This document shows, piece after piece, positions 26,463-40,698 of a stretch of DNA of 64,000 bases. The first letter of the stretch is position 1. Each line of letters begins with the position of its first letter. The notes below the pieces were generated by a model. That model searched no databases and was not told the DNA's origin. It was given only the letters and a program-made list of their open reading frames with translations. The stretch is from sequence record PQ100635.1; one strand, given 5' to 3'. Source of the DNA: Escherichia phage PNJ-9. A program made the position numbers and the translations under genes.

Positions 26463-27148
<686 letters not shown>

Positions 27149-27224: not shown

Positions 27225-27512
27225 ATGAAAACCTATAAAGAATTTATATCACCTGTTGCTAACGTTTCTACTCTGACCGAAGCAACCCTTACTTCCGAAG
27301 TTATTAAAGCAAATAAAGGACGTGAGGGTAAACCAATGATTAGTCTGGTTGACGGCGAAGAAGTAAAAGGTACTGTTTACTTAGGGGATGGATGGTCTGC
27401 TAAGAAAGATGGCGCTACTATTGTTATCTCTCCGGCTGAAGAGACCGCACTGTTTAAAGCTAAGCATATTTCTGTAGCTCAGCTTAAAATTATTGCAAAA
27501 ACTCTTCTGTAA
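27225..27512 (+). CDS. ipI: internal protein I-like capsid-targeted protein
   Basis: 95-aa ORF with N-terminal capsid targeting sequence MKTYKEFIS; sits next to 57B as ipI does in T4. Confidence 0.65.
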   Translation: MKTYKEFISPVANVSTLTEATLTSEVIKANKGREGKPMISLVDGEEVKGTVYLGDGWSAKKDGATIVISPAEETALFKAKHISVAQLKIIAKTLL

Positions 27513-27515
27513 GTA

Positions 27516-27545
27516 GTTTACATGCTGATAGGACTATGTTATAGT
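27516..27545 (+). promoter_or_regulatory. T4-type early promoter with 10-bp inverted repeat
   Basis: GTTTAC 27516-27521, TATAGT 27540-27545; inverted repeat GATAGGACTA/TAGTCCTATC around the -10. Confidence 0.55.
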
Positions 27546-27580
27546 AGTCCTATCAGATCAACAACCAAACGGAAAAACAA

Positions 27581-27844
27581 ATGAAAACCTATAAAGAATT
27601 TATCGCTGAATCTCAATCTTCTACTCTGTCAGAGAACTACGAATCATTCTCTTACAACAACGACCATGCAATGTTCTACGACCGAAACATCGGTACTTAT
27701 GTCCATGTATGGGGTGTTAAAGATGGTAACGTAGTTGTTAAGAAAAACTCTAAAGAAGGCAATGGTCGTGGCCAGGTAAAAATTACCAGCAAGAAAGCTA
27801 TCCAAGCTTACGTCGATTATGTTAAACGCGAAGCTGGTATTTAA
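27581..27844 (+). CDS. internal-protein-like capsid-targeted protein
   Basis: 87-aa ORF beginning MKTYKEFIAE (capsid targeting sequence with the L/I-x-E protease motif). Confidence 0.55.
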   Translation: MKTYKEFIAESQSSTLSENYESFSYNNDHAMFYDRNIGTYVHVWGVKDGNVVVKKNSKEGNGRGQVKITSKKAIQAYVDYVKREAGI

Positions 27845-29515: not shown

Positions 29516-29860
29516 ATGAAAGGCAATATTTATTTGGTAGTTCATGATTTAACGTTTTATTTTAACGAACAGGATACAGTTATTTCCGACCGGTTGATTA
29601 ATTCGTTATATCAACACGCTGATTACGTTTATTTTCAAAATGAATTCGGACATTGGAAGTTTCTTAAAAACCGTTCCGGGTTAACTAGTTTTGAATACTT
29701 TGACCGTAAAGACCTTTTAAACGAAATTCCATTACAACATCGGTTCCAGAAACGCGAATCACTATACTATTGTCGCCATATACCAAATGCTGAATGTGTT
29801 TATGAAGCGATTAATCTATGGCGTCGGCGTCGAGAGCAAATTGATGATATGCCAAAATAA
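29516..29860 (+). CDS. hypothetical protein in the tRNA region
   Basis: 114 aa from ATG 29516 (SD GAGGA); the ORF track's upstream extension overlaps the tRNAs and is rejected. Confidence 0.4.
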   Translation: MKGNIYLVVHDLTFYFNEQDTVISDRLINSLYQHADYVYFQNEFGHWKFLKNRSGLTSFEYFDRKDLLNEIPLQHRFQKRESLYYCRHIPNAECVYEAINLWRRRREQIDDMPK

Positions 29861-29861
29861 G

Positions 29862-30171
29862 AAGCCGGGTCGCTACCGGCAAGACGTCGGACTGATGTTC
29901 CCTGAGTAAGGACTGGTCTTAATAAATCTTTACGATTTGTTAATACCCCCTTACATCACAGCAGAAACGGCGCACAGAATTATCGATTCGAGGAAATATC
30001 TTTGCCGTAAGCCGAGTAGCGTTTTTGACGGAACGTTCGGATATGGTCGAGATATGGCCTTTTAAAAATATTGAGTAGCGTCAACTGCTTAATAACCGGG
30101 TTCGAATCCCGGCGTTTCGTACAAACACTTGCCTTAGCAGGTGGGACCCCGACAAGGTTGCCGCAAGGCAT
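29862..30171 (+). ncRNA. candidate structured stable-RNA region
   Basis: About 310 nt with no credible ORF, between the tRNA pair and a strong terminator; contains a perfect tRNA-like T-arm CCGGG-TTCGAAT-CCCGG (30096-30112) and several stems; could correspond to T4 stable RNA species, but no cloverleaf could be folded. Confidence 0.3.
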
Positions 30172-30201
30172 AGCCCCTTCCGAAAGGTTGGGGCTTTTTT
30201 G
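30172..30201 (+). terminator. rho-independent terminator
   Basis: GCCCC-ttccgaaaggtt-GGGGC stem followed by TTTTTT. Confidence 0.7.
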
Positions 30202-30209
30202 TATAAATA
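30202..30209 (+). promoter_or_regulatory. T4-type late promoter (TATAAATA)
   Basis: Exact TATAAATA directly after the terminator, 36 nt upstream of the 30245 ATG. Confidence 0.6.
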
Positions 30210-30244
30210 TAGTAAACAATAAACCTACTTTCTAAGGACCATCA

Positions 30245-30871
30245 ATGTATACTTTTAATGAATTTTTAGCAGAAACGGAAGTAATCACCGAAGCCGGTGT
30301 ACGTATGACAAAAGAGAAATGGCAAGCTGCTTACGATGCTATTTCTGGTACAAAAACTAGTACAGAGTTTTTCAAAAACGTTCAAGCCATGTACGGTATC
30401 GACACTTCCAGCCAAAAAGAATATTACAGAGCTTCTAAAGCATTCAAAGATATTGTTAGTGGTGGTGTTTCTGCTAAATCGGGTTCGCCTAAAGTAAAAC
30501 CTGCTCCTACCATTCCTAAACCTGCGACCCCTAAAGCAGTAGCAAAACCTGAGCCTAAGCCGGAAGTAAAAGCAACTCCTAAAGCTCCTGCTCTTAAGTT
30601 TGATACTTCTAGCCTGGAAAAAAAATATAAACAACTATCTTCGCTTGTTCGTGATATTGAATCCGATACATCTTCACTCGTTCGTGAATTCAATATTCTT
30701 CGTAATGGCCAACATATCAACAACCTTGATACCCCAGACCTTTATCGTCTTTATTTGACTATCGAAGGTTTGAAGTATACTCAACCACTTCACGATGCGA
30801 TTAAAGAAAAACTTCGTCAGGCAGGTCGTTTGGCTGCTGACGCTGCTCAGTATGCAAAAACTCGTAAGTAA
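30245..30871 (+). CDS. late-expressed protein with a diverged capsid-targeting-like N-terminus and Pro/Lys-rich linker
   Basis: 208-aa ORF beginning MYTFNEFLAE (compare MKTYQEFIAE); low-complexity PKVKPAPTIPKPATPKAVAKPEPKPEVKATPKAP segment; bracketed by a late promoter and a hairpin terminator. Confidence 0.6.
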   Translation: MYTFNEFLAETEVITEAGVRMTKEKWQAAYDAISGTKTSTEFFKNVQAMYGIDTSSQKEYYRASKAFKDIVSGGVSAKSGSPKVKPAPTIPKPATPKAVAKPEPKPEVKATPKAPALKFDTSSLEKKYKQLSSLVRDIESDTSSLVREFNILRNGQHINNLDTPDLYRLYLTIEGLKYTQPLHDAIKEKLRQAGRLAADAAQYAKTRK

Positions 30872-30876
30872 AGAAT

Positions 30877-30895
30877 GGGGACTTCGGTCCCCTTT
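30877..30895 (+). terminator. C(UUCG)G hairpin / weak terminator
   Basis: GGGGAC-TTCG-GTCCCC followed by TTT and an overlapping CCCC-ttta-GGGG alternative stem. Confidence 0.5.
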
Positions 30896-30923
30896 AGGGG
30901 GTCTATAACTTACTGAAAAAGTT

Positions 30924-30952
30924 GTTTACTTCTTCCCTAGATGTGTTACTAT
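30924..30952 (+). promoter_or_regulatory. T4-type early promoter
   Basis: GTTTAC 30924-30929, 17-nt spacer, TACTAT 30947-30952, then CCTATTAAAACATGAGGAGAA leader. Confidence 0.55.
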
Positions 30953-30980: not shown

Positions 30981-31484
30981 ATGAGTCTTTACACTGAACT
31001 GAATAAAAAATCTGAAGAATCTGCTGAAACTATTTTTAAAAACGTGCAAAAGCGTATTTTAGAAAAGATGTATAACACTGCAGCTAAAGGTGAAAAATCT
31101 TGCCGGTTTCCGATGAGGTGTTCTTCCGATTTATGCGCAAATACTATTGAATGGCTGGAAAGCGAAGGTCTTACGGTAGAGAAAAACCCGGCGACTTCTA
31201 TTGACAGTGAATCATATATTAGTATTTCTTGGGATAAATCAAGGGTAGAAGAGAAAGATGGTGATTGGGTTGTAGATGTTAAAACTTCTGATGGCGGACG
31301 TTCTGTTGAAGTTTCAGCTGTAGTTAAAGGTACCCACGAACAAAGGACTTGGGGTTGGGGTGGTGAAGAAAAAGAAATTGTTCTTAGTGTGATTGCCAGG
31401 TCAACTAGTAATAAAATTGCACAAAGCATCATTGACGCTGCAATTGCTGAAGCAGAAAAAATTTGCAAAATTAAAAATAAATGA
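30981..31484 (+). CDS. hypothetical early protein
   Basis: 167-aa ORF after an early promoter and SD GAGGAG; no recognisable motif. Confidence 0.5.
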   Translation: MSLYTELNKKSEESAETIFKNVQKRILEKMYNTAAKGEKSCRFPMRCSSDLCANTIEWLESEGLTVEKNPATSIDSESYISISWDKSRVEEKDGDWVVDVKTSDGGRSVEVSAVVKGTHEQRTWGWGGEEKEIVLSVIARSTSNKIAQSIIDAAIAEAEKICKIKNK

Positions 31485-38383: not shown

Positions 38384-38872
38384 ATGAATATATTTGAAAT
38401 GCTTCGTAATGACGAAGGTCTTAGACTGACTTTATACAAAGACACTGAAGGCTTTTGGACAATTGGCATAGGTCATTTAGTAACAAAGAACCCGTCTTTA
38501 GCTGTAGCTAAAGCTGAACTTGACAGAATGATCGGGCGTAAATGCAACGGTACAATTACCCTTGATGAGGCTGAAAAGTTATTTAATGAAGACGTTGATA
38601 AAGCTGTTCGCGGAATCTTGGGTAATGCTAAACTTAAACCGGTATATGATTCTTTAGATGCGGTTCGTCGATGTGCATTGGTCAATATGGTCTTCCAAAT
38701 GGGTGTAGCAGGCGTCGCTGGTTTTACTAATTCTCTTCGTATGCTTCAACAGAAACGTTGGGATGAAGCGGCAGTAAATCTAGCACAATCTAAATGGTAT
38801 CGTCAGACACCTAATCGCGCGAAACGCGTAATCTCAACATTTAAAACAGGAACTTGGAAAGCGTATATATGA
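38384..38872 (+). CDS. e: endolysin (T4 lysozyme)
   Basis: [32 protein letters not shown]...; near-identical to T4 lysozyme as recalled; 162 aa from ATG 38384. Confidence 0.95.
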
Positions 38873-39150
38873 AAACATATAGCGAATTTTTATCAGAATC
38901 TATTCTTAACGAAGCTACTGACACATTTGCAACTAAGCTAGGTGCAGCTTTGGTTGAAGCTGAAAGTCTATTAGCACGTATTTCTGAACTTGCTAGTAAG
39001 ATAGATACTCGCAAATTTGAACGTACCAGCGATATCGTTAAGCTTGAAGCCTTGTTGCGTATGTGCGATAAACCGGAAGAAATCGCTAAGAACGGCTCGC
39101 TGATGAAACAACGTCTTGAAAAATATATTTCAGGCGCTTCAGAAAAATAG
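38869..39150 (+). CDS. internal-protein-like capsid-targeted protein
   Basis: 93 aa beginning [10 protein letters not shown] (capsid targeting sequence); ATG overlaps the e stop (ATGA). Confidence 0.6.
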
Positions 39151-39151
39151 T

Positions 39152-39205
39152 GTTTACTTCCTCCAAGGACTTTGATACTATACATTCATCAACTACTTGG
39201 AGGAA
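39152..39205 (+). promoter_or_regulatory. T4-type early promoter with 10-bp inverted repeat sequestering the denV SD
   Basis: GTTTAC 39152-39157, TACTAT 39176-39181; arms TTCCTCCAAG (39158-39167) and CTTGGAGGAA (39196-39205); SD GGAGGA lies in the downstream arm. Confidence 0.55.
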
Positions 39206-39208
39206 ATT

Positions 39209-39622
39209 ATGACCCGTATCAATTTAACACTTGTTTCTGAACTGACCGACCAACATCTTATGGCTGAGTATCGTGAATTACCACGCGTATTTGGTGCAGT
39301 CCGTAAACATGTTCAAAACGGTAAACGTGTAAAGGATTTTAAAATCTCTCCAACATTTATCTTAGGCACAGGTCATGTAACATTCTTTTACGACAAACTC
39401 GAATTTTTACGTTTACGTCAAATCGAGCTAATCGCCGAATGCTTGAAACGTGGTTTCAAAATCAAGGACACGACTGTCCAAGATATTTCCGACATCCCTG
39501 CCGAATTTCGTAATAATTATGTCCCGTCCGAAGCGTCCATTGCGATAAGTCAAGCACGCTTAGATGAAAAAATTGCTCAGCGCCCGACTTGGTACAAATA
39601 CTATGGTAAATCAATTTACTAA
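39209..39622 (+). CDS. denV: endonuclease V (pyrimidine-dimer DNA glycosylase)
   Basis: [34 protein letters not shown]...; near-identical to T4 DenV as recalled; 137 aa from ATG 39209. Confidence 0.95.
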
Positions 39623-39628
39623 GGAAAA

Positions 39629-39889
39629 ATGAAAATGTATCAAGAATTTATCGCTGAAGCAGATGCCAAAGGTCATAAATTTAAAGTTAAAGCTTTCATT
39701 GGTGATGCGGAAGACTTTGGCTCATTAAAACGTAATGGGTATTTTTTCTTAGGTGGCGATGGTAAAGAAATCAACACCTATGCAAAACGTAGTGAAATTG
39801 CTTATGTTGTAGCAAGCCCTAAAGTAGATGTTGACGATATTGGATACGATTTTAACAACTTCGGAATTATTTCTGGCGGTAAAGCTTAA
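39629..39889 (+). CDS. internal-protein-like capsid-targeted protein
   Basis: 86 aa beginning MKMYQEFIAE. Confidence 0.6.
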   Translation: MKMYQEFIAEADAKGHKFKVKAFIGDAEDFGSLKRNGYFFLGGDGKEINTYAKRSEIAYVVASPKVDVDDIGYDFNNFGIISGGKA

Positions 39890-39892
39890 ACG

Positions 39893-39922
39893 GTTTACGC
39901 TTAAGTATTAATATGGTATAAT
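39893..39922 (+). promoter_or_regulatory. T4-type early promoter
   Basis: GTTTAC 39893-39898, 18-nt spacer, TATAAT 39917-39922. Confidence 0.55.
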
Positions 39923-39952
39923 TACTCTATCAAAACAAACAAGGAAACAAAA

Positions 39953-40255
39953 ATGAAAACTTATCAAGAATTTATCACCGAAGCGCGAGTAAGTGCAGGT
40001 AAATTAGAAGCCGCTATAAATAAAAAGGCCCATTCATTTCATGATTTGTCCGATAAAGACCGTAAGAAACTTGTAAGCCTTTATATTGACAAAGAGCGTA
40101 TTCTCGCTCTTCCTGGCGCTAATGAAGGTAAACAGGCCAAGCCTTTGAATGCTGTCGAAAAGAAAATTGATAACTTTGCTTCTAAATTCGGTATGTCTAT
40201 GGATGACCTTCAGCAAGCGGCTATCGAAGCAGCTAAAGTAATTAAAGGTAAATAA
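39953..40255 (+). CDS. internal protein (IPII/IPIII-like)
   Basis: 100 aa beginning MKTYQEFITEARVSAGKLEAA; resembles T4 internal proteins as recalled. Confidence 0.6.
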   Translation: MKTYQEFITEARVSAGKLEAAINKKAHSFHDLSDKDRKKLVSLYIDKERILALPGANEGKQAKPLNAVEKKIDNFASKFGMSMDDLQQAAIEAAKVIKGK

Positions 40256-40368
40256 CAGTTTACTTTCTCCTAGAATTGTGATAGTATATTCATAATTACT
40301 TGGAGTGGTAAATACAGAAATGGACAATTCATAGGTCATTCCATAGCCCCAACCTTAAGAGAAACTAA

Positions 40369-40698
40369 ATGAAAACATATCAAGAGTTTATCACTGAAGT
40401 TACATTATCTGCGGAACAGAAAGCTGCTATCGAAGAAGCTAAAAATCCCAAAGTAACATATAAAGTAAATAGTAAAGGCGTTTTTGATGGCTTGGTTCAA
40501 GACCCTGAATTGAAAAAAGCTCTTTCTAAAACTAATGCGTACTTTGCTCCTAAATTTAACACAGCCGGCGTACTTATTGGATTGGATGTATTCAACTCTA
40601 AAGGTGTTCTATCTAATGCCTTTGGTTATGCCGCTAACAAAATTACCAAAGCCGCATGGGAATCCAATACCAAACAAGCTCAAAAGCCTAGAGTATAA
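40369..40698 (+). CDS. internal-protein-like capsid-targeted protein
   Basis: 109 aa beginning MKTYQEFITEVTLSAEQ. Confidence 0.6.
   Translation: MKTYQEFITEVTLSAEQKAAIEEAKNPKVTYKVNSKGVFDGLVQDPELKKALSKTNAYFAPKFNTAGVLIGLDVFNSKGVLSNAFGYAANKITKAAWESNTKQAQKPRV

Follow-up and report, generated by a model that had tools for sequence, protein, structure and literature searches.

The gene at positions 30245–30871 of the plus strand of the analysed DNA of Escherichia phage PNJ-9 probably encodes a member of a new family of internal head proteins of T4-type phages, which would be packaged into the head and processed by proteolysis. The positions refer to a 64,000-nucleotide stretch of sequence record PQ100635.1, which is called the window throughout the text. 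The source genome is that of a Mosigvirus, a T4-type phage similar to RB69, JS09, and HX01, and the gene order in the window is that of HX01. The finding extends the known mechanism of internal head proteins directed by a capsid-targeting sequence (CTS) and reveals no new one. Packaging, cleavage, late transcription, and injection are the steps that we infer for the gene and its product. A literature search that covered phages JS98, RB69, and fHe-Yen9-01, the genera Mosig-, Dhaka-, and Karamvirus, and the names of the ORFs did not identify virion proteomics, N-terminal sequencing, or transcript mapping for any member of the family.

The first-pass annotation had described an ORF of 208 residues that starts with MYTFNEFLAE, has a Pro/Lys-rich middle part of low complexity, and ends in a helical C-terminal domain, and all three features are present. 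The ORF begins with an ATG codon located 6 nt downstream of the Shine-Dalgarno sequence AAGGA (30234–30238, plus strand), which was identified by direct reading of the sequence. The precursor has a molecular mass of 23.2 kDa and a pI of 9.5. Cleavage after Glu16 would result in a mature protein of 192 residues with a computed mass of about 21.2 kDa and pI of 9.8. The AlphaFold model of the complete protein has a mean pLDDT of 73. The small N-terminal domain (codons 17–73, 30293–30463, plus strand), delimited from the alignment and the model, contains the conserved sequences RMTK-x-KW, YGIDTSSQKEYY, and KAFK, and is modelled as three helices formed by residues 23–72. It is followed by a basic linker with a pI of 10.3 (codons 74–116, 30464–30592, plus strand), which is rich in proline, lysine, and alanine and includes the tract PKVKPAPTIPKPATPKAVAKPEPKPEVKATPKAP (residues 82–115) and S/T-P-K motifs. 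The linker is predicted to be disordered, with pLDDT values lower than 50 for residues 74–112. The helical C-terminal domain (codons 117–208, 30593–30868, plus strand), with the sequence pattern FDTSS..KKY..LRNGQHINNLDTPDLY..YTQP, is modelled with confidence over residues 122–206, and its helices 122–153, 164–177, and 180–206 have pLDDT values of about 90.

Comparisons of sequence and fold were uninformative about the function of the protein. It belongs to PHROG 2280 (E = 1.5e-57), which has no assigned function, and is 98–99.5% identical to "hypothetical proteins" of phages PNJ-6, TU01, JS09, and HX01. Homologs were identified by tblastn in 138 of 50,697 phage records, all of them from T4-like phages of Enterobacteriaceae, and among the matches listed they are called "hypothetical" wherever they are annotated. 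A deep profile search of 1.84 billion cluster representatives gave 13 matches; therefore, there is no wider family from which an annotation could be borrowed. The 208-residue protein did not match any Pfam family, including TonB_C, the profile of the family gave no match to PDB sequences below an E-value of 0.46, and Foldseek matches among viral structures were limited to family members and uncharacterized proteins. Either folded domain produced generic helical-bundle matches at best, and could not be assigned to a known family or fold. A search of NCBIfam identified a weak match of residues 80–121 to a TonB spacer (E = 0.006), which would fit an envelope-spanning or periplasmic protein in which the Pro/Lys tract serves as a rigid spacer similar to that of TonB. 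However, the match has a score of 16.5 bits in comparison with a cutoff of 315, and it is compositional, covering the low-complexity tract alone. Furthermore, the protein lacks a signal peptide, a transmembrane segment, and the TonB C-terminal domain, and its N-terminus is acidic and helical, which together make a location in the envelope extremely improbable.

The first ten residues of the protein (MYTFNEFLAE, codons 1–10, 30245–30274, plus strand) constitute a CTS-like propeptide, which is modelled as a helix and ends in the protease-type site L8-A9-E10. Its comparison with the T4 sequence MKTYQEFIAE gives a BLOSUM62 score of 28, which corresponds to a z-score of 5.6 relative to the background of the window, defined by start codons that give ORFs of at least 60 residues. 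The ORF ranks seventh among the 851 candidate start codons; the six with higher scores belong to the other ORFs of internal-protein type encoded by the phage, and the best score among the remaining 844 is 16. It has been reported that targeting by the T4 CTS depends mainly on residues 4 and 7 (Y4 and F7 in IPIII), and processing on residues 8 and 10 (PMC9026906). The residues at these positions of the 208-residue protein are F4, F7, L8, and E10. Every member of the family has F or Y at position 4 and L, I, or V at position 8. Position 7 is occupied by F, which is invariant in alignment A1, or by I in one clade, and E10 is found in all members except one, with a conservation of at least 90% in alignment A1. 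Position 2 is Y or L instead of K in most family members, and the P1' residue after E10 is T or S in the family and A in IPII and IPIII of T4. The orthologs from Dhakavirus start with MKTYNEFLNE, which is nearer to the canonical signal; therefore, the N-terminus of the Mosigvirus protein can be regarded as a diverged copy of the standard CTS.

A second protease-type site, TEVITE (codons 11–16, 30275–30292, plus strand), with the putative scissile bond I14-T15-E16↓A17, is located in a segment that is modelled as disordered: the N-terminal helix comprises residues 4–11, and the residues 10–17 preceding the first domain are flexible and of low confidence. In alignment A1, E16 shows no variation and A17 almost none, and most of the distant members of the family retain a similar [ILMV]-x-E sequence a few residues past E10. 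It is probable that ITE16↓A17 is the final cleavage point. All 12 divergent members have the motif M-x-x-[FY]-[NK]-[ED]-[FI]-[LIV]-x-E or, close by, an [LI]-x-E sequence, and the CTS motif persists in those with a different C-terminal domain (P0023 and P0026) or N-terminal domain (P0025 and P0027). The mean pairwise identity within the family is 56% for residues 1–10, 47% for residues 11–16, and 31–36% for the folded domains and the linker. The first 18 residues of the 12 divergent members contain 19 [LI]-x-E sequences, compared to 1.7 expected, an 11-fold enrichment, and their mature regions are depleted, with 10 observed compared to 17.0 expected; the family sequences are related, so the counts are not independent. 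This distribution would fit a protein that loses its propeptide and then survives the prohead protease. The Dhakavirus ortholog, the preserved determinants, and the highest conservation of any segment of the family support the N-terminus being a conserved capsid-targeting-type propeptide and not a chance look-alike. The reading of the first-pass annotation, a diverged targeting sequence with an L-x-E cleavage context, is thus upheld, with L8-A9-E10 joined by the second site at E16. Its suggestion of a virion-packaged protein agrees with all the comparative tests that could be made in silico, and the comparison strengthened it.

It has been stated that the genes of internal proteins are confined to two hypervariable loci, 57B–tRNA.4 and e–denV (Arbiol et al. 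2010, PMC2839356). The first of these loci is found at 27225–27844 of the window, between 57B and tRNA.4, and the second at 38869–40698, around the lysozyme gene e and denV. The gene of the 208-residue protein is located outside both of them, at a third site in between, which extends from the rnaC terminator to the genes on the e.8 side. The gene is probably an exception to the two-locus confinement, which is a historical generalization and not a mechanistic requirement. The six other CTS-bearing ORFs of the phage, with N-termini of the type MKTY[KQS]EF[IL].., start at positions 27225, 27581, 38869, 39629, 39953, and 40369 of the plus strand, and the 208-residue protein is about twice as large as their products. 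Four of the six proteins belong to PHROGs named internal head or virion protein, and those encoded by the ORFs at 27581 and 40369 fall in PHROGs without a known function. All six genes have GTTTAC-type early promoters and no TATAAATA motif, the late promoter consensus, within 110 nt; therefore, late-only expression is atypical for internal protein genes of this phage. The ipI locus is bordered by a homolog of gp57B (26693–27148, plus strand), which matches the Pfam family Acb1 of anti-CBASS nucleases (E = 1.3e-58), and a counter-defence gene thus directly adjoins the internal-protein cassettes.

Homology of the mature part of the protein to T4 IPIII, which is of similar size, was considered and rejected, since the similarity detected by hhalign is limited to residues 1–25. 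Internal proteins have been described as having nothing but the CTS in common (PMC3012670), and a non-homologous mature part is therefore compatible with membership in the functional class. The earlier description of the protein as distinct from the classical internal proteins agrees with its separate PHROG, with the end of the similarity to IPIII at residue 25, and with the location of the gene outside both loci. The position of the gene apart from the canonical loci (PMC2839356), the 192 residues and two domains of its product, compared to the 86–109 residues of the six other internal proteins, and the basic Pro/Lys linker, which could bind DNA in the cell, would also be in line with a late cytoplasmic protein that is not packaged. 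Such a protein could be associated with the nucleoid or DNA, or related to assembly, and its CTS-like N-terminus would be a relic of cassette recombination with internal protein genes. However, decay would be expected of a relic, whereas the propeptide shows the strongest conservation of all segments across genera and has outlasted domain swaps. The DNA coding for the propeptide has diverged from that of the other ip genes, which rules out recent gene conversion with them, and the concentration of protease-type sites at the N-terminus also argues against a relic. The non-packaged protein is the main rival to the packaged internal head protein, and it is disfavoured as unlikely.

The surroundings of the gene can be compared with those in T4. 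The 300 nt that precede the gene (about 29857–30153, plus strand) have near-complete identity to T4 rnaD and rnaC. The two are small stable RNAs encoded after the tRNA cluster. The rnaD/rnaC stretch is not covered by Rfam. The RefSeq record of HX01 contains the "hypothetical protein" CDS D299_gp042, equivalent to the window ORF 30071–30235, which is probably a spurious call because it extends over parts of rnaC, the rnaC terminator, and the late promoter motif. In T4, the slot contains no gene, and the rnaC terminator leads straight into the GTTTAC-type early promoter of e.8. In the window, about 700 bp that comprise the late promoter motif, the gene, and a hairpin separate the rnaC terminator from the homologous early promoter. 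The order of terminator, [T/G/C]ATAAATA positioned 35–43 nt before the ATG, gene, GC-rich hairpin, and GTTTAC promoter is the same in every locus examined, which were those of JS98 (Dhakavirus), PG7 (Karamvirus), Kosakonia phage 305 (Kanagawavirus), Klebsiella phage HMGUkp2, and L008 and L009, the metagenomic contigs that encode the most divergent members of the family. The synteny is kept in at least seven genera. As a self-contained cassette, the gene fills a slot left empty in T4. The family includes proteins from Mosig-, Dhaka-, Kanagawa-, and Karamvirus and from T4-like phages of Serratia, Yersinia, and Klebsiella, and is absent from T4.

The 5' border of the cassette is the stem-loop GCCCC-TT-CC-GAAA-GG-TT-GGGGC with a T-run (30173–30200, plus strand), the predicted terminator of the tRNA/rnaD/rnaC unit. 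An equivalent stem-loop terminator is found 3' of rnaC in T4, RB69, and JS98. The exact T4-type late promoter consensus TATAAATA (30202–30209, plus strand) starts 43 nt before the ATG and ends 35 nt from it, so that the spacing of 36 nt given by the first-pass annotation is essentially right. The window contains 14 copies of TATAAATA, compared to 8.35 expected, and at least 14 copies were present in four of 100 shuffled sequences. The motif by itself is weak evidence in an AT-rich genome, and the case for a late promoter is therefore based on the conservation of its position. An exact TATAAATA occurs at −43 in HX01, −36 in JS98, and −35 in PG7, and the motif with one base changed (G/CATAAATA) is located at −35 to −39 in Kosakonia phage 305, HMGUkp2, L008, and L009. 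Judged from these motifs, late transcription of the gene would start from TATAAATA.

The hairpin that had been noted to close the gene, with a C(UUCG)G loop, is GGGGAC-UUCG-GUCCCC (30877–30892, plus strand); it is positioned 6 nt past the stop codon and forms the 3' border of the cassette. The hairpin is followed by only three T residues and is therefore not a canonical intrinsic terminator; it may define the 3' end of the late mRNA or stabilize it. Orthologous loci retain the hairpin with compensatory changes in the stem, for example GGAGAC/GTCTCC in JS98. The early-type promoter GTTTAC-N17-TACTAT (30924–30952, plus strand) of the next gene (30981–31484) is not part of the cassette and has its homolog in the T4 promoter that comes directly after the rnaC terminator. 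A possible second hairpin, CCCC-TTTA-GGGG (30889–30901, plus strand), shares sequence with the 3' arm of the CUUCGG hairpin. In JS98, HMGUkp2, and L009, the element TTAGGGGG(T) is kept and is joined directly to the −35 box (GTTTAC) of the promoter that follows. This arrangement resembles recombination cassettes composed of a stem-loop and an early promoter (PeSL-like).

A divergent member of PHROG 2280 (E = 1.3e-35) occupies the same slot in RB69, where one gene is split by a frameshift into the two annotated ORFs ORF149c and ORF148c (L003 11429–11991, minus strand). The RB69 protein starts with MKTYAEFLTE↓AAKLPSE↓A, and its gene is preceded by a late-promoter-like motif with one mismatch instead of an exact late promoter. 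The split copy may be a pseudogene or the result of a sequencing error in the reference genome. The possibility that ORF149c/148c is a near-identical copy of the PNJ-9 gene with a frameshift in its run of eight A residues was rejected, as the DNA identity is 42% and the frameshift is elsewhere. The A8 homopolymer (30618–30625, plus strand) is located at the start of the C-terminal domain and is an indel hotspot. Phages PNJ-6 and TB004 have nine A residues at this position, which truncates the ORF with the loss of the C-terminal domain, and a truncated form of 126 residues (P0014) recurs in metagenome assemblies. The variation between A8 and A9 reflects either real heterogeneity or an error that recurs in sequencing. 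Programmed slippage was rejected because the A8 run is specific to Mosigvirus. Two other members, P0023 (L009 475–1083) and P0026 from Serratia phage 92A1, have kept the CTS, N-terminal domain, and Pro/Lys linker, and their C-terminal domains are unrelated; therefore, the linker seems to be a boundary for domain shuffling.

The CTS-like N-terminus, the late promoter motif, the long helical C-terminal domain reminiscent of scaffolding proteins, and the fixed syntenic slot in many genera, unlike that of the hypervariable internal proteins, could also indicate an accessory of the prohead core or scaffold similar to gp67, gp68, and gp22. Such a protein would be targeted to the prohead and then degraded and expelled instead of being injected. 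Cleavage converts core proteins into short fragments (PMC5694885). By contrast, multiple internal sites are absent from the 208-residue protein, whose mature part contains the single [LI]-x-E sequence I186-K-E188 with a glutamate that is not conserved, and the mature regions of the family are depleted of such sites. In addition, the gene is dispensable, because it is absent from T4, which builds heads without it, is split in RB69, and exists in A9 frameshift variants. These observations leave a core or scaffold protein as quite improbable, and an internal head protein remains the preferred reading.

The conserved motifs suggest how such an internal head protein would be produced. Late in infection, RNA polymerase with the phage late sigma factor would initiate at TATAAATA, and a monocistronic mRNA of about 0.68 kb would be produced, delimited by the rnaC terminator upstream and the CUUCGG hairpin at its 3' end. 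The conserved targeting determinants suggest that the 23.2-kDa precursor binds to the scaffolding core of the prohead through its N-terminal helix. The pattern of sites indicates that a prohead protease of the gp21 type would cut at LAE10↓, ITE16↓A, or both, and the cleavage would leave the basic protein of about 21.2 kDa with few further sites. The mature protein would stay in the DNA-filled head, plausibly in contact with DNA through its Lys/Pro-rich linker, and would be ejected into the host along with the genome. It can be speculated, by analogy with IPI and IPIII, that the two helical domains act early in the host on first-response defence or on the incoming DNA. The analogy (PMC3012670, PMC9391042) is the basis for both the possible contact of the basic linker with DNA and the putative anti-defence role after injection.

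Internal proteins are the first phage proteins to meet the defences of the host. IPI blocks the restriction enzyme GmrSD, and IPIII is needed for the infection of E. coli ECOR17 (PMC9391042). At least 138 sequenced phages, including many therapy candidates, encode a member of the family described here, and a probable packaged and injected protein is a candidate determinant of host range or anti-defence. For most of the other internal proteins, we know of no target. The third locus indicates that genes with a CTS also occur outside the two classical loci. The CTS serves as a tool for loading T4 heads with foreign proteins, and the targeting peptide described here, which is diverged but looks functional, extends the range of its known sequences. 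It is possible, and proposed here tentatively, that this is the first family of internal proteins to depart from the strain-specific, hypervariable type of anti-restriction cassette, and that its product is instead broadly conserved, fixed in synteny, packaged, and expressed only late. Its histone-H1-like linker with S/T-P-K motifs would bind the packaged DNA, and its two helical domains would have a general role in genome ejection or entry, or would act against a widespread enterobacterial defence. If this were true, the gene would define a third internal protein locus and a new class of injected effector.

The protein shares several properties with IPI, IPII, and IPIII of T4: a propeptide of about ten residues of the MKT[YF]xEF[IL]xE type ending in [LI]-x-E, a basic mature protein, as are IPII and IPIII, and a dispensable, variable gene, which T4 lacks and which is split by a frameshift in RB69. 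The end of the IPI propeptide, TITE↓A, resembles ITE16↓A, and PNJ-9 itself encodes six canonical CTS proteins. Unlike the internal proteins of T4, the 208-residue protein has two helical domains with about 40 residues of disordered Pro/Lys linker between them, its mature part is unrelated to theirs and belongs to a separate PHROG, and its gene is located at a third locus instead of 57B–tRNA.4 or e–denV. The other internal protein genes of the phage have GTTTAC-type early promoters, whereas the gene of the 208-residue protein is predicted to be late-only, and, unlike the hypervariable internal proteins, it is syntenically conserved in at least seven genera. T4 Alt is also a larger packaged protein, and is cut at ITE-6 and LTE-619 (PMC5694885); the removal of its propeptide at ITE-6 involves the same tripeptide as ITE-16 here. 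However, the 208-residue protein has no similarity in sequence or fold to an ADP-ribosyltransferase, and Alt lacks a CTS of the MKTYxEF type and is also processed at its C-terminus. The gene resembles the PeSL cassettes of internal protein loci (PMC2839356) in being a single-gene unit with insulated transcription, with a terminator at the 5' side and a GGGG...CCCC stem-loop and early promoter at the 3' side, and in its presence or absence between related genomes exactly at the cassette borders. It differs from those cassettes in that its own gene has a late promoter motif instead of an early promoter, and recombination at its borders is putative.
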